Positions 2,370 to 43,033 of a stretch of 64,000 bases of DNA are shown piece by piece. Numbering within the stretch: the first letter of the stretch is position 1; each line of letters starts with the position of its first letter. Source of the stretch: Candidatus Kaiserbacteria bacterium (GTDB lineage: Bacteria > Patescibacteriota > Minisyncoccia > Phycocordibacterales > Phycocordibacteraceae); assembly GCA_026396715.1 (NCBI GenBank), contig JAPLWH010000006.1, forward strand, positions 42,850 to 106,849. The letters run 5' to 3'. Position numbers and translations under genes: made by a program. The notes beneath the pieces are model-generated. The model had not been told where the DNA came from, did not search any database, and was given only the letters and a program-made list of their open reading frames with translations.

Positions 2370-4385
<2,016 letters not shown>

Positions 4386-11258: not shown

Positions 11259-11382
11259 TGTTGGATAGTATACCCCGTTAGGATATAAACCCTCTCTCAT
11301 CTAACCCACTCATTGTGGACAGTACAAAAATACCGGCAACGTATCCAAAAATAGAATATCTTACCGAGTCCGCCCCGCGCTC

Positions 11383-23624: not shown

Positions 23625-25292
<1,668 letters not shown>

Positions 25293-37072: not shown

Positions 37073-37774
37073 CTATCGAAGTGTCTCCTTCCAGCGTTTG
37101 TAGAGGGCGGCGGTGGCGCGGAGGTCGCCGGCATTGTAGCGGGCGATGTCGAAGTACTTCCCTTCTTTGTAGAGCGTCGCGACGTCGTCGCCGGTCGTGC
37201 CGCCCGCTTTGGGACTCTCTATACCGAGCGCGCGACAGAAGAGGTGCAGACTCTTGCGGAAGCGCGCGGCGCCGTAGAACGTGAGCTGGTCCATCAGGTC
37301 GATATGCGCGGCGCCACGCTGCATCGAGAGGTAGCGGTTGCTGAGCAGGTCTTTCGTCGGCACGACGCGGTGCACCATCGAGCGGATGGCGAGGAACGGC
37401 GCATCGAAGCCGCGACCATTGAAGGAAACGAACTCCGTGCATACATTCGCGACTTTCCAGAATTGCTCGAGCATCGCTTTTTCATCCATCGCTTCGTATT
37501 TGATGCCGTCTATTTCACTGTTTGCAAGCTCGGTGCCAGGAGCGGAAAAATAGACCGCGCCTTTTTCTTTCTCGGTATCGTACACGCCGATCGCGACGAT
37601 AAAACCAGTAAGCGGCGAGAGCCCCATCCCCTCTTTCAATTCTTTCATCTCATATTCGTATTCTTCTTCGCTCTTCGACGATTCACGCAAATACCACGAC
37701 AGATTGTGCTGCGTCGTCTCATCAAGCGCGTCCCACGCTTCGCCGACTGTCTCGATATCGAATACGAGTGCCAT
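37073..37774 (-). CDS. Predicted 3'-5' exonuclease related to PolB exonuclease domain (RNase H-like)
   Basis: Start MALVFDIETVGE (Exo I DxE), later FNGRGFDAPFL and YNAGD (Exo III-like). Confidence 0.6.
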   Translation of the reverse strand: MALVFDIETVGEAWDALDETTQHNLSWYLRESSKSEEEYEYEMKELKEGMGLSPLTGFIVAIGVYDTEKEKGAVYFSAPGTELANSEIDGIKYEAMDEKAMLEQFWKVANVCTEFVSFNGRGFDAPFLAIRSMVHRVVPTKDLLSNRYLSMQRGAAHIDLMDQLTFYGAARFRKSLHLFCRALGIESPKAGGTTGDDVATLYKEGKYFDIARYNAGDLRATAALYKRWKETLR

Positions 37775-37814
37775 GGGCACAGTATAGCCATTTCCCATAG
37801 CAAAGCGAAGGTAC

Positions 37815-37826
37815 TATAGTTCCCCC
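37815..37826 (+). promoter_or_regulatory. -10 box TATAGT 6 nt upstream of MmeI-like ATG (probable leaderless transcript)
   Basis: gtacTATAGTtcccccATG; no SD sequence. Confidence 0.4.
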
Positions 37827-40604
37827 ATGCTCACTTGGAATGAGATGCGTGATAGGGCGACCAAATTCGCCCGCGCATGGAGAGACGAGACGCGCGAGAT
37901 GGGAGAATACCAGACCTTTTGGAACGAATTCTTCGACATATTCGGCATAAAGCGCCGTTCTGTCGCTATTTATCAACAACAGGTGGAAAAGCTCGGTGGA
38001 GGACGCGGATTCATCGATCTCTTCCAGCCAGGGAAACTTATCGCCGAACATAAGTCCGCTGGGAAAGATCTCGATGAAGCATTCATGCAGGCGATCGAAT
38101 ACTCTGCAGCTCTTCCCGAAGACATACGCCCCCGCTATATCATCATCACTGATTACGCGCACATGCGCCTCTGTGACCTCGAAGGCGAAAACGGAGAGAC
38201 GGAAAAATATGAGTTTCCCCTCTCGGACCTTCCGAAGCATATTCGGCACTTCGCATTCATTCCCGGCTATGAGGTGCGCAAATACCGTGAGCAGGATCCA
38301 GTGAACCGCAAGGCGGTGCGCGTCGTGGTCAATCTGTATCAGACGCTCGCAAAAAGTAATTACCCGCGGGAACATCTTGGGCACTTGCTCGTACGGCTCG
38401 TCTTCTGTTATTTCGCAGACGACGCCGGCATCTTCCCGCCCGGCGAGCCATTCCGCTATTACCTGGCACTCGGGAGCAGTGAAGACGGCAACGATTTCGG
38501 CAGCCGTCTCGATGCCGTCTTTTCAACATTGAACACACCCGAAGAAAGGCGGCAAACAACGCTCGATGAGCGGCTCGCTGAATTACCCTATGTAAATGGC
38601 GGACTCTTCGCCGATTACCTCCCTGTCGTCTTCTTCAACCGCGAGATGCGCCGTGCGGTGCTTGATGCTTGCGAGTTCAATTGGAGCGCAGTTTCCCCGG
38701 AGATTTTCGGCTCAATGTTCCAGTTCGTACTCGAAACCGACTCGGGCGACACTCGCCATGACTTCGGCGCCCACTACACTTCAGAGAAGAACATCCTGAA
38801 AGTCATCGACGGTCTCTTTATGGATGAGCTGCGTACCGAACTCTCCACAGCTGGCAAAAACACGGCAAAGCTGAATGCGCTCTGGGAGAAAATCGCTCGC
38901 ATTACCCTCCTCGACCCAGCCTGCGGTTGTGGCAACTTCCTTGTCGTCGCCTATAGAGAGCTGCGCCGTCTTGAGCTCGAAATATTGAAGCGTCTCCATC
39001 CGCAACACGCTGAGCAAGTAGAAGGAGCGGGTCAAACGGCGCTTCCAATAGACATCCGCCATCTTTCAAAACTTTCTGTCGAGCGGATGTACGGCATCGA
39101 GCTTCTCCACTTCCCCGCAGAAATAGCGAAGCTCTCGCTCTGGCTTACCGACCATCTTGCAAACATAGAGCTGGGCGATTATTTCGGTGTACCATTTGTG
39201 AAGCTTCCCTTGACCGAATCCCCGCACATCAAAGAAGGCAATGCGCTCACGCTCGACTGGGAATCTATAGTCCCGAAAGAAAATCTCTCCTATATCCTCG
39301 GCAATCCGCCCTTTATAGGATCGCGCGTCATGGACGCGAACCAAAAAGCGGACATGCTTGCCGTCTTCGGAAAAATCAGAGAACTCGGCTTTCTTGATTA
39401 TGTAACTGCTTGGTATAAGAAAGCCGCCACGTATATCCAAAATACGCCGATTAAAGTCGGCTTCGTATCAACAAACTCCATCACGCAAGGCGAACAGGTC
39501 GGCATCTTGTGGGAGCAATTGCATGCGCTCAATATTCACATCCATTTCGCGCATCGTACCTTCAAGTGGAGTAACGAGGCACCGGGGAAGGCCGCCGTGT
39601 ATTGCGTCATCATCGGTTTCGCGGCGTTCCCTTCAGAGCGACCTCGACTTTTTGATTACGAAGATGTTCGCGGCGAAGCTCACGAAGTAAGTGTAAAAGA
39701 AATAAATCCCTATCTAGTCGCGGCACCAGAAAATGTCATTGTACGCAACCGCCACAAACCAATTTCAGAGGTACCCGAGATGTCATTCGGCAATATGCCG
39801 CGGGATGCCGGCGCATTTATTTTGAGCGAAGAGGAACGTGCAAATCTTCTTGCGCAGGAACCAGCAGCAGAAAAGTTTGTTCGCGATTATATGGGCGCGC
39901 AAGAATTTTTGCATAGTGAGAAACGCTACTGTCTCTGGCTTGTGGACGCAAAACCCGAAGAGCTTCGCGCACTCCCACTAGTCATGCGCCGTATTGAAAA
40001 CGTTCGCGCATTTCGCGAGTTAAGTGCCGCGGCTTCAACACGCAAAATGGCAGAAACGCCATCTCTCTTCGCGCAACGCACACAACCAAAAAGTGATTAC
40101 GTACTTATTCCGAGTACCTCGTCTGAAAATCGTCGATATGTTCCGATGGGCTTTATGCCCAAGGAAGTAATAGCCAGTAATAGTTGTCACACTATACCAA
40201 GTGCAACTCTCTATCACTTCGGCGTTCTTGAAAGCGAGCTCCATATGACCTGGATGCGTGCTATCTGCGGACGACTTGAAAGTCGCTATCGTTATTCTAA
40301 AGACATTGTCTACAACAATTTCCCGTGGCTGGAAAATCCTTCAACGGAAGTGAAGAAGGCGGTCGAAGATGCGGCACAGGCAATCCTCAATGTGCGTGCT
40401 GCGCACCCCGGCGCAACGCTTGCCGACCTCTACGACCCGCTCACGATGCCCACCGATCTCCTCGCGGCGCACCACGCGCTCGACCGCGCCGTCGACCGCG
40501 CCTACGACATTACCAAGCCCTTCCCATCCGAATCCGCCCGTCTCGAATTTCTATTTGAGAAATACCAAAAACTTCTGCAACGAACGCCTACAAAGAAAAT
40601 CTGA
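37827..40604 (+). CDS. MmeI-family Type IIL/IIG restriction-modification enzyme (endonuclease + N6-adenine methyltransferase + TRD in one polypeptide)
   Basis: 925 aa; N-terminus MLTWNEMRDRATKFARAWRDE...FWNEFFDIFGI matches MmeI nuclease domain; MTase motif I LDPACGCGNFLV, motif IV GNPPFIG; FVSTNSITQGEQV; C-terminal SRYRYS...FPW and LADLYDP motifs. Confidence 0.88.
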   Translation: MLTWNEMRDRATKFARAWRDETREMGEYQTFWNEFFDIFGIKRRSVAIYQQQVEKLGGGRGFIDLFQPGKLIAEHKSAGKDLDEAFMQAIEYSAALPEDIRPRYIIITDYAHMRLCDLEGENGETEKYEFPLSDLPKHIRHFAFIPGYEVRKYREQDPVNRKAVRVVVNLYQTLAKSNYPREHLGHLLVRLVFCYFADDAGIFPPGEPFRYYLALGSSEDGNDFGSRLDAVFSTLNTPEERRQTTLDERLAELPYVNGGLFADYLPVVFFNREMRRAVLDACEFNWSAVSPEIFGSMFQFVLETDSGDTRHDFGAHYTSEKNILKVIDGLFMDELRTELSTAGKNTAKLNALWEKIARITLLDPACGCGNFLVVAYRELRRLELEILKRLHPQHAEQVEGAGQTALPIDIRHLSKLSVERMYGIELLHFPAEIAKLSLWLTDHLANIELGDYFGVPFVKLPLTESPHIKEGNALTLDWESIVPKENLSYILGNPPFIGSRVMDANQKADMLAVFGKIRELGFLDYVTAWYKKAATYIQNTPIKVGFVSTNSITQGEQVGILWEQLHALNIHIHFAHRTFKWSNEAPGKAAVYCVIIGFAAFPSERPRLFDYEDVRGEAHEVSVKEINPYLVAAPENVIVRNRHKPISEVPEMSFGNMPRDAGAFILSEEERANLLAQEPAAEKFVRDYMGAQEFLHSEKRYCLWLVDAKPEELRALPLVMRRIENVRAFRELSAAASTRKMAETPSLFAQRTQPKSDYVLIPSTSSENRRYVPMGFMPKEVIASNSCHTIPSATLYHFGVLESELHMTWMRAICGRLESRYRYSKDIVYNNFPWLENPSTEVKKAVEDAAQAILNVRAAHPGATLADLYDPLTMPTDLLAAHHALDRAVDRAYDITKPFPSESARLEFLFEKYQKLLQRTPTKKI

Positions 40605-40606
40605 TT

Positions 40607-40834
40607 TCAACCGCGAGGCGGAAAATCATCGTTTCCATACGAGTTTCGCCATCCGATTCTGCCATTCTCATTCTGCACGAATAGTTCGGCCTCTTTATTG
40701 ATAGCGACTTCGCGTGCTCGTACAACCGCTTCCGCTTTCGTGTCATATATACCTGCAGCCCGTTCTGCTCCCGCGGAATGTACCTTCCAATCCTCGCCTG
40801 ATGGACTAACCCATACTTGCTTTTGCTTGCTCAT
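40607..40834 (-). CDS. DUF2188-family protein
   Basis: 75 aa; WKV...TKAEA...A..A....EL.V...G.I....SYGNDDFPPRG pattern. Confidence 0.6.
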   Translation of the reverse strand: MSKQKQVWVSPSGEDWKVHSAGAERAAGIYDTKAEAVVRAREVAINKEAELFVQNENGRIGWRNSYGNDDFPPRG

Positions 40835-40920
40835 GTTAATTCTGCATTACTTGATAATAAAACTCTTGTCTCTTCCTTCTTCGGTAACCGAATTGAGTCC
40901 ATTTTATTCCTCAAATATCC

Positions 40921-40973
40921 ACTGTCAATATCCCCGACATATATTTGACAGTAATTCTGACACTGCTACCATA
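40921..40973 (+). promoter_or_regulatory. 8-bp inverted repeat (actgtcaa-N16-ttgacagt) overlapping -35 TTGACA of putative promoter for HTH-Panacea gene
   Basis: IR 40921-40928 / 40945-40952; TTGACA 40945-40950, 16-nt spacer, TACCAT 40967-40972, ATG at 40979. Confidence 0.45.
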
Positions 40974-40978
40974 GACCT

Positions 40979-41761
40979 ATGACCACCGCACTTCTAAAAA
41001 AACTTCGGGAGGAACAAGCATTGTCACAAGATTCAATAGCGAGAGAGCTTGGTATTTCGCGCCCGACATATATCGCGATTGAACAAGGGAAACGCAAGCT
41101 TACCCTCTCTGAAGCGGAGTGTTTGGCACAGATGTTTAGTATCTCACTCGACGAACTTGTCTACGGGAAACGTCGCAAGGTGGATGTCGTCTTATCGAAA
41201 ACACCGGTACCAAAGAAGGTAGCTGCGGAAAATGGTATACGCATCAGCGTCCCAGCCGAGAATAAAGAGAAGTTCAAACAGGTACTGCTCTATATTCTTG
41301 AAAAAATCGGTAGCAAGCCGAATATCGGCATGACCGCCCTCTATAAAATCCTCTATTTCATCGACTTCGACTACTACGAGAAATTCGAAGAACAACTCAT
41401 GGGTGCTGTGTACATCCGCAATCATTATGGTCCGACTCCTGTTGCCTTCACAAAAATCGTGAAAGAAATGGAACGCGAGGGTACTCTTGCAGCAATCGAA
41501 ACAAAGTATTTTCAACATGAACAGAAGAAATTCCTTCCTCGCACGAAGCCAGAATTAAAACAACTTTCTGGTCAAGAAATTGCACATATCGATGAAACGC
41601 TAGCGCGGCTTGGCGACAAGAACGCTCGTGAACTTACCGAGCTGTCTCATCGCGATATCCCATGGATGTGCGTCAAAGATGGCGAGCCGCTTGAATATGA
41701 GTCCGTCTTTTATCGTTCAGATGAGACTTCACAACGTGATTATGGACCGGATCCGTTATGA
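40979..41761 (+). CDS. XRE-family HTH + Panacea (DUF4065) domain protein, antitoxin-like (PanA/SocA-like)
   Basis: N-terminal HTH (LSQDSIARELGISRPTYIAIEQGKRKLTLSEAECLAQMF); central ALYKILYFIDFDYYEKFEEQLMGAVYIRNHYGPTP matches DUF4065. Confidence 0.7.
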   Translation: MTTALLKKLREEQALSQDSIARELGISRPTYIAIEQGKRKLTLSEAECLAQMFSISLDELVYGKRRKVDVVLSKTPVPKKVAAENGIRISVPAENKEKFKQVLLYILEKIGSKPNIGMTALYKILYFIDFDYYEKFEEQLMGAVYIRNHYGPTPVAFTKIVKEMEREGTLAAIETKYFQHEQKKFLPRTKPELKQLSGQEIAHIDETLARLGDKNARELTELSHRDIPWMCVKDGEPLEYESVFYRSDETSQRDYGPDPL

Positions 41762-42125
41762 GGAAACGCTAGGGTTCGCTCATGACATCAAGAAGCTCCT
41801 TAAACGCTTCCGCTCACTCCGAGCAGATATAGAAGTAGCAAAACGCTACGCGTTAGAACCTTTCCATGCCGAGCCGCGCATAGACACGAATGCTATCGAA
41901 GAAATTTCGGGGTCATGTACGGAAGAAGTGCGGGCATGCAAAATAAAAAAATTCACATGCCGGGCAATCAAGGGGCGAGGTGTTATGAGCGGAATCCGCA
42001 TTACCTATGCGTATCACATCCGACAGAAGCGTGTGGTGTTCATCGAGATTTATTTCAAGGGCGACAAAGAGAATGAGGATCGCGCGCGGATTAAAGAATA
42101 TCTCGAGAGTATACTAGACGCATGA
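41742..42125 (+). CDS. RelE/ParE-superfamily (HigB/Gp49-like) toxin candidate
   Basis: 127 aa from MDRIRYEETLGF...; C-terminal GIRITYAYHIRQKRVVFIEIYFKGDKENEDRARIKEY resembles RelE/HigB core; 20-nt overlap with upstream gene, ATGA overlap with downstream. Confidence 0.45.
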   Translation: MDRIRYEETLGFAHDIKKLLKRFRSLRADIEVAKRYALEPFHAEPRIDTNAIEEISGSCTEEVRACKIKKFTCRAIKGRGVMSGIRITYAYHIRQKRVVFIEIYFKGDKENEDRARIKEYLESILDA

Positions 42126-43033
42126 ATGCAAAAGTGATTCGTGCGGCTACAGCACTAATTCTCGCGCTCGCGGCGGGCGCGATGGGATACACGGCGGGCG
42201 GGAGCGGAACGGAAAGTCCGAACATAAGCATCCCCGCTCAAACTATTGCCGCACCAACAGCAGGCACGACACGCGTGATTTACAGCCTCGATCAGAAACA
42301 GAATGATAAAGAACTCATCGCACTCATCAATGCCGCAGAGGACCACATCTACTTCGCGATCTACACCTTTACCCTTCCGACTATCGCCGACGCTCTCGTC
42401 AAAGCAAAAAAGCGCGGCGTCGATGTGAAAGGACTCATGGACTCCGAGCAAAGCGGCAACAGTTACGGCACTCCTATTACTGCAAAACTGCGTGACGCCG
42501 GTATTCCTCTCCTTGTAGAGCGACACGCAAGTGGCAACGGCATCATGCACATAAAACTCCTTGTGACGGAACAGGCGTACGCCTTTGGCAGCTATAACTG
42601 GACCAATTCCGCGACAACTCTCAACGATGAAATCCTCGAAATCGGTACCGACCCGGCACTGCGGCAGACGTACGAAAATATTTTGAAACGACTGTTTGAT
42701 GCCTATAAAGGCAACGCGGCCGCGGGAGCGGCCGCGAGTGTTTCTATCGGGACCATCGACTACACGCAAGCACCCGCGCACGTCGGCCAAAGAGCCTCCG
42801 TGCGCGGCACCCTCGTCAAAGCCTATACCTCCGCAAGTGGTACCGTCTTCCTCGATTTCTGCGAGAATTACAAAAACTGCCCCTTTTCAGGCGTCATCTT
42901 CGCCGACGATGTAAAAAAATTCGGCACCCTTTCTCGCTACAATGGGACCGCCATCACCCTTACCGGCAAAATCTCCTCCTACCAGGGAAAAGCCGAAATC
43001 GTCCTTTCTAATCCGAATCAAATCTCTCTGTGA
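42122..43033 (+). CDS. Secreted phospholipase D (HKD)-family nuclease (Nuc-like) fused to C-terminal OB-fold domain
   Basis: Signal peptide MNAKVIRAATALILALAAGAMG; single HKD-like motif HIKLLVTE...GSYNWT; C-terminal ~100 aa with OB-fold-like pattern (VRGTLVKAY..SGTVFLDF...ITLTGKISSYQGKAEIVL). Confidence 0.65.
   Translation: MNAKVIRAATALILALAAGAMGYTAGGSGTESPNISIPAQTIAAPTAGTTRVIYSLDQKQNDKELIALINAAEDHIYFAIYTFTLPTIADALVKAKKRGVDVKGLMDSEQSGNSYGTPITAKLRDAGIPLLVERHASGNGIMHIKLLVTEQAYAFGSYNWTNSATTLNDEILEIGTDPALRQTYENILKRLFDAYKGNAAAGAAASVSIGTIDYTQAPAHVGQRASVRGTLVKAYTSASGTVFLDFCENYKNCPFSGVIFADDVKKFGTLSRYNGTAITLTGKISSYQGKAEIVLSNPNQISL

Follow-up and report, generated by a model that had tools for sequence, protein, structure and literature searches.

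An MmeI-family Type IIL restriction-modification enzyme with a predicted AACRAC site and a probable leaderless start in Candidatus Kaiserbacteria

The DNA analyzed here is a stretch of 64,000 nucleotides (hereafter the window) from a Candidatus Kaiserbacteria bacterium (GenBank assembly GCA_026396715.1, contig JAPLWH010000006.1, positions 42,850 to 106,849 of the forward strand), in which an open reading frame (ORF) at 37827-40604 on the plus strand, complete with 925 amino acids (aa) and a stop codon, encodes a Type IIL restriction-modification (RM) enzyme of the MmeI family. Judged by its sequence, the protein is a bona fide and otherwise ordinary new member of this family, the current understanding of which it leaves unchanged. 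We consider it very likely that the gene specifies a functional-looking single-polypeptide enzyme that has a leaderless promoter of its own and the predicted recognition site AACRAC. The small-genome Candidatus Kaiserbacteria thus has a complete one-protein RM system, which lies within a small defense islet. Should the enzyme be active, it would extend the MmeI toolbox by a further natural specificity, predicted to be AACRAC, and would allow the residue-to-base code published for positions 1 and 2 of the site, two positions that have been difficult to engineer in MmeI itself, to be tested independently on a natural protein. The leaderless signal is relevant mostly to the annotation of gene starts in these genomes.

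Family membership and reading frame

Five Pfam MmeI domains, each above its gathering score and with E-values from 3e-19 to 1e-90, follow one another in the canonical order on the plus strand: the PD-ExK nuclease domain MmeI_N (37854-38354, aa 10-176; E 1e-36, 127 bits), the helical spacer or "arm" MmeI_hel (38373-38609, aa 183-261; E 3e-19), the gamma-class N6-adenine methyltransferase MmeI_Mtase (38844-39653, aa 340-609; E 1e-90), the target recognition domain (TRD) MmeI_TRD (39729-40331, aa 635-835; E 7e-79) and the C-terminal helical domain MmeI_C (40353-40577, aa 843-917; E 2e-28). The sole match among solved structures is the Type IIL prototype itself, MmeI of Methylophilus methylotrophus (PDB 5HR4; TCCRAC 20/18), which has the same order of five domains and a similar length (919 aa in the solved chain, 925 aa in the query) and aligns at 917 bits and 48% identity, with short indels only, across query residues 2-924 and MmeI residues 3-910. 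The PADLOC model REase_MTase_IIG (Type IIG/MmeI-like) matches the full length of the protein with 1146 bits. The assignment to the MmeI family, originally predicted from the letters of the DNA and a list of its reading frames, is borne out by these comparisons, and so is the claim that there is no separate methyltransferase gene: Pfam scans of 30 of the larger ORFs from ~26.3 to 51.6 kb, with short ORFs partly covered, detected no methyltransferase domain that would point to such a gene nearby.

The ORF opens with the ATG at 37827 and continues uninterrupted up to its stop codon at 40602-40604. Frameshift or truncation, which the original prediction had named among the findings that would speak against it, did not emerge: neither a frameshift nor an internal stop codon shortens the ORF in 37827-40604, and a search for phase-variable repeats found no homopolymer of at least 7 nt within the gene. 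The start given originally, 37803, has to be corrected, as this position belongs to the promoter region and is not coding. The ATG at 37827 is the first start codon past the preceding in-frame stop, which makes a longer version of the protein impossible. The N-terminus of the protein pairs with MmeI residue 3 and with the MLTWNE with which several homologs begin, and residues 2-6 can be aligned to MmeI and further homologs, so that 37827 is the conserved start; further in-frame ATGs are found downstream, at codons 7 and 25. In an exact-sequence look-up, the 925-aa protein was absent from the records, while the GroEL of the same metagenome-assembled genome, encoded in the window at 23625-25256 on the minus strand, is recorded, a protein of 100% identity being annotated in a genome of this kind from Candidatus Kaiserbacteria (Patescibacteria). 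Short-read assemblies of the same strain in Logan (L039-L041) break within the RM gene near codon 217, which may reflect strain heterogeneity in this gene.

Promoter and leaderless start

The putative promoter occupies 37792-37820 on the plus strand and comprises a -35-like TTCCCA (37792-37797), a 17-nt spacer and the -10 hexamer TATAGT (37815-37820), which the 6 nt TCCCCC separate from the ATG at 37827. There is no Shine-Dalgarno (SD) sequence within the 14 nt 5' of this ATG; the only SD-like word, AAGG, ends 15 nt before it, too distant to serve. As had been proposed for the hexamer 6 nt upstream of an ATG that lacks an SD, a leaderless transcript is the best reading of this promoter, and we regard it as probable. 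Transcription would be driven from TTCCCA-17-TATAGT, and the mRNA would start at or beside the A of the ATG.

This proposal draws on the geometry of other genes in the window and on the conservation of the promoter in related loci. A start-agnostic scan considered ATGs that open ORFs of 80 codons or more, close to the 5' ends of these ORFs, and counted TANNNT at each spacing of 0-30 nt 5' of them. TANNNT-N6-ATG occurs 12 times in the window, whereas the control spacings have 2.2 hits on average and 6 at most, which makes for an approximately five-fold enrichment (Poisson P = 4e-6; 1e-4 when corrected for 31 spacings). Besides the RM gene, this spacing precedes the ATGs at 4367, 7480, 11258, 35296, 36432, 37774, 44989, 47466 and 50288 on the minus strand and at 40979 and 42122 on the plus strand, and the -10-like hexamer at the N6 spacing often comes with an extended TGn. 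SD-like 4-mers, for which a rough chance estimate is ~28%, show no enrichment, being found before 13 of the 76 candidate genes. These sequence patterns suggest that a leaderless start is a common feature of the genes in this Candidatus Kaiserbacteria genome. The literature searched contained nothing on leaderless translation in Saccharibacteria, Patescibacteria or the Candidate Phyla Radiation (CPR).

Among related loci, TATAGT-N6-ATG is preserved base for base in L001, L002, L003 and L044; the spacing or the hexamer varies in L035 and L036 (TATAGT-N7) and in L043 (TAAACT-N6), and L042 (TACTAT-N8) fits less well. Hexamer and spacing are kept in homologs of 76-86% protein identity, even where the upstream sequence or the neighboring gene differs. 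Some homologs from outside the CPR, such as L006 and L007, have GGAGG-type sites instead.

An explanation that competes with a leaderless start, although we consider it unlikely, is an mRNA with a leader, which would begin further upstream, inside the divergent exonuclease gene, and be translated at 37827 without an SD, or from Met7 or Met25, the TATAGT hexamer being fortuitous. The in-frame ATGs at these two codons fit this explanation, and the promoter itself speaks in its favor and against a leaderless start, since the -35 element is weak and the match in a sigma-70 consensus scan is 9/12, a score that is equally frequent in shuffled sequence. Against a leader stand the enrichment of TANNNT-N6-ATG at exactly this spacing in the window, the conservation of hexamer and spacing despite a changed upstream sequence or neighbor, and the conserved start at 37827 indicated by the alignment of residues 2-6, so that the leaderless start is preferred.

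Catalytic residues and the predicted recognition site

The functional residues of MmeI were mapped onto the query following the definitions in PMC4833311 and PMC2731913. The nuclease triad D64 (38016-38018), E74 (38046-38048) and K76 (38052-38054), on the plus strand as are the motifs below, corresponds to MmeI D70/E80/K82, mutation of which abolishes cleavage (PMC4833311) and to which Morgan et al. aligned the PD-(D/E)xK residues when choosing homologs; MmeI E25 is matched by E24, as read off the 5HR4 alignment. In the methyltransferase domain, motif I, LDPACGCGNFL (38910-38942, aa 362-372), and motif IV, NPPF (39303-39314, aa 493-496), are identical to those of MmeI and, with motif I preceding NPPF, stand in the gamma-class order. 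The adenine-box residues H314/F484/W570 of MmeI correspond to the identical H316/F496/W581, of which W581 falls within the MmeI_Mtase Pfam match and H316 lies just N-terminal of it; NPPF, H314 and W570 have been reported to be invariant across the MmeI family. The gamma-class motifs and the nuclease domain that had been noticed in the DNA are therefore intact, and the two motifs that had been quoted were recovered at aa 362-373 (LDPACGCGNFLV) and aa 492-498 (GNPPFIG).

In an alignment with 120 homologs (P0001-P0120, 53-86% identical), the nuclease triad is present in 120/120, which indicates purifying selection on the nuclease, and the remaining catalytic residues are nearly invariant. With its catalytic residues intact at these positions, the enzyme looks fully functional, and from the MmeI family we infer enzymatic activity, a cut distance of ~20/18 nt and N6-methyladenine (m6A) formation on one strand. 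By analogy with MmeI, the TRD and the gamma-class methyltransferase domain would bind an asymmetric 6-bp site, the penultimate adenine of which would be flipped out and then m6A-methylated on one strand only, protecting the host; the N-terminal PD-ExK domain, acting through the helical arm, would cut unmodified DNA ~20/18 nt downstream. Cleavage would be expected to need S-adenosylmethionine and two sites.

An orphan or decaying RM gene without restriction activity, that is, a methyltransferase-only or crippled relative of MmeI, appears improbable. Public annotations, those of NCBI among them, call homologs "DNA methyltransferase" or "class I SAM-dependent DNA methyltransferase", Morgan et al. 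found three native MmeI-family genes to be naturally disrupted, and MmeI-like proteins that lack the PD-ExK motif, such as YeeA, have no endonuclease activity. The query, however, has a full-length ORF free of frameshifts and stops, scores 127 bits for MmeI_N and keeps both E24 and the triad, the latter in common with all 120 homologs.

The recognition site was predicted from the pairs of base-reading residues described by Morgan & Luyten (PMC2731914) and Callahan et al. (PMC4833311), the specificity code being calibrated by direct alignment with MmeI and CstMI. The TRD differs from that of MmeI in length by a single 1-aa insertion, lacks the 7-aa insertion and the 4-aa deletion typical of 7-bp enzymes, and has NNFPWLE aligned to NTFPWIQ of MmeI (the FP(W/F)P-like motif with which the shared TRD scaffold ends). 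At position 1, the residues are A735/A749/Q750, with Q750 at the position of MmeI Y738; A735 together with Q750 is the pattern reported for A-reading enzymes, and A is predicted. At position 2, A is also predicted from F654/M657, the MmeI K645M mutant being known to switch from C to A. The S763/N785 pair at position 3 equals S761/N783 of NmeAIII and predicts C. Position 4 is contacted by S786 (MmeI A774) and R822 (MmeI R810), where arginine indicates a purine and the small side chain favors R, leaving R or G as the candidates. T764/L817 at position 5 (MmeI T752/L805) are conserved contacts and would correspond to the methylated A, and E818/R820 at position 6 (MmeI E806/R808), a pair as in MmeI, predict C. 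The site is thus probably 5'-AAC(R)AC-3', with AACGAC as the alternative, which is a prediction from residues and not a measurement. The expectation that the TRD could be used to predict the recognition sequence has in this way been borne out, with the specificity positions readable as AAC(R/G)AC.

The specificity residues that differ between MmeI and the query are F737A and Y738Q at position 1, Y642F and K645M at position 2, E751S at position 3 and A774S at position 4, accompanied by a change of the minor-groove triplet from KSK to SRV, whereas position 5 (T/L), position 6 (E/R) and R810 are identical; AACRAC is therefore predicted rather than TCCRAC. The gene of CstMI was taken from the Corynebacterium striatum plasmid pTP10 and its site, AAGGAG (20/18), from Table 1 of PMC2731913. 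The residues of this enzyme (A..Q / F-M / K-D / L-R / K-D) are exactly what the code leads one to expect for AAGGAG, which confirms that A..Q and F/M stand for "AA" at positions 1-2. CstMI resembles the query in these residues (A723/Q738 and F642/M645) and in architecture, and differs from it in an overall identity of ~37% and at positions 3, 4 and 6, where it has K/D, L/R and K/D (for G, G and G) against S/N, S/R and E/R in the query. NmeAIII of Neisseria meningitidis (GCCGAG 21/19), compared by its published site and residues, shares with the query the Ser/Asn pair for C and differs at positions 1, 2, 4 (L784) and 6 (K816/D818).

The MmeI homolog on the Deinococcus radiophilus plasmid pRadio4 was considered as a calibrator representing DrdIV (TACGAC) and was not used, as its K774/S810 predict C at position 4. 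This plasmid-borne homolog (L038, 301-3120), which apparently is not DrdIV, has an MLTWNEIR start like the query, and a TIR-domain gene overlaps its 3' end.

Several points weigh against an active enzyme with this specificity. With Ser at the A774 position, the choice of R over G at position 4 is tentative; the minor-groove residues K487/S488/K489 of MmeI are S/R/V in the query, so that positions 2-4 are perhaps read slightly differently. MmeI E51 is replaced by Q50, a substitution that also occurs in two characterized active enzymes (PMC2731913). Native MmeI-family genes that are silently inactive do exist, the known cases being due to frameshifts or stop codons, neither of which is found in the query gene.

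The frequency of AACRAC in the window is uninformative for or against the predicted site: 48 occurrences were observed against 51 expected under a maximal-order Markov model, with the component hexamers at z-ranks of ~1400-1550 out of 4096. With AACRAC not being avoided, an active enzyme would oblige the host to rely on methylation.

Among the 120 homologs, many of which come from Patescibacteria, the 13 specificity residues are combined in many ways, while the catalytic residues hardly vary; uncultured CPR bacteria thus offer a natural showcase of the MmeI recognition code. Variants include AAQ, RGE, SHV, ARQ and AFY at position 1, FM, YK and IK at position 2, SN, EN, RD and KD at position 3, and ER and KD at position 6. 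The signature of the query, AAQ/FM/SN/SR/TL/ER, is carried by P0001, P0002, P0105 and P0110, all of them uncharacterized metagenomic proteins from CPR/Patescibacteria, the first two with 85-86% identity to the query. Other homologs that are equally close, such as P0003 to P0008, have other combinations, and different sites are accordingly predicted for them. Rapid and modular changes of specificity, of which this combinatorial shuffling is an instance, have been described before in the MmeI family.

Divergent region, linked genes and genomic context

Upstream of the RM gene and in the opposite orientation lies a gene for a PolB-like 3'-5' exonuclease, the promoter and start of which (37772-37786, minus strand) consist of TATACT (37781-37786), 6 nt and the ATG at 37774. 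In the 52-bp divergent region at 37775-37826, two leaderless-type promoters thus stand back to back, one with TATACT on the minus strand and the other with TATAGT on the plus strand. Related loci (L001 2945-3000, L002 2945-3000, L003 and L044) share a block of ~45 bp from this region in nearly identical form. In L001 and L002, the divergent neighbor starts with a different protein, which by eye resembles argS, at the place of the exonuclease in the window. With the block kept although the neighbor differs, the RM cassette seems to carry the -10 box of its neighbor. L001 and L002 are labeled Saccharibacteria and L003, which comes from a 0.1-um groundwater filtrate, is labeled Poribacteria; their homologs have 77-82% protein identity and a near-identical promoter block. 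This occurrence across phylum labels points to either recent horizontal transfer or doubtful bin taxonomy.

Genes of housekeeping type flank the RM gene on both sides. Those upstream encode, together with the exonuclease, RNase J, two HhH-GPD glycosylases, AhpC, VKOR, MsrB, MsrA and an FMN reductase, and those downstream encode IF3, a NUDIX protein, a beta-CASP nuclease, Map, Adk and SecY. The region 37827-43033 has a GC content of 50.5% compared with 54.9% for the window. Within it, a DUF2188 gene of 75 aa (40607-40834, minus strand) converges on the RM gene, with the stop codons 3 nt apart; this gene matches the PADLOC defense candidate PDC-S16 (E 9e-27). It is followed on the plus strand by a gene for an HTH_3 and SocA/Panacea antitoxin-like protein (HTH-Panacea; 40979-41761), preceded by TTGACA-16-TGCTACCAT-N6-ATG with the ATG at 40979. 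At 40901-40972, the promoter-like sites of the DUF2188 and HTH-Panacea genes have TTGACA boxes that are inverted with respect to each other and may represent a shared operator. Overlapping the HTH-Panacea gene is an ORF of 127 aa (41742-42125, plus strand), for which no Pfam, PADLOC or PDB sequence match was obtained; both are linked neighbors and do not belong to the enzyme.

In L001, L002, L035, L036 and L044, too, the MmeI homolog is followed by the HTH-Panacea gene and its small partner, the outer flanks of these loci being different. From this arrangement, the two are probably a toxin-antitoxin pair that travels with the RM gene. Another relative carries HigB and an M78 peptidase beside a serine recombinase. 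The RM gene and the HTH-Panacea pair look like a mobile defense cassette. Morgan et al. reported no conserved neighbor for the characterized MmeI-family enzymes, and the linkage may therefore be specific to this clade. A more elaborate proposal can be offered as speculation, and we consider it rather doubtful: in these CPR bacteria, the MmeI-type enzyme would not work by itself, and its gene would lead a mobile three-gene unit, together with the HTH-Panacea protein and a partner of ~110-127 aa without a detectable family, in which the HTH-Panacea pair would serve as a controller or as an addiction or abortive-infection back-up, and which would combine back-to-back leaderless promoters with an undescribed Type II specificity, AACRAC.

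Downstream of the 127-aa ORF, a gene with a phospholipase D (PLD) domain (42122-43033, plus strand; PLDc_2, E 2.5e-22) begins with TATACT-N6-ATG. It lies 1.5 kb downstream of the RM gene and has weak DrmC/DpdK-like matches (DrmC-like, E 4e-11). Since the homologous loci lack this gene, it probably stands on its own as a nuclease or defense gene. That the RM protein is instead a methyltransferase or specificity subunit of a bacteriophage exclusion (BREX; PglX) system or of a DISARM (defense island system associated with restriction-modification; DrmMI-type) system, with the PLD gene as a DrmC-like partner, is suggested by this match and by weak PADLOC/NCBIfam matches of the protein to mad2, PglX and, along part of its length, DrmMI (E 1e-36), and is nevertheless highly improbable, since the protein has its own nuclease, the DrmMI match has 124 bits where the IIG/MmeI model has 1146, the NCBIfam models for PglX (BREX MTaseX) and for MADS (methylation-associated defense system) reach ~15 bits against cut-offs of 500-900 bits, the PLD gene is missing from the homologous loci, and no DrmA/DrmB, BrxA/B/C/L/Z, helicase or DUF1998 genes occur among the scanned neighbors; membership in BREX, DISARM or MADS was rejected on these model scores and missing partner genes.

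A separate feature of the window is the 9-mer TCTAACGGG, which has 6 exact copies (13177, 32558, 32664, 43686, 57653 and 63107) where ~0.5 would be expected, and near-copies at 11274, 13287, 43658, 57567 and 63079. In intergenic regions, the copies often form inverted pairs (CCCNTTAGA...TCTAACGGG) that are 28 nt or ~100 nt apart, and two of them directly abut a start codon.

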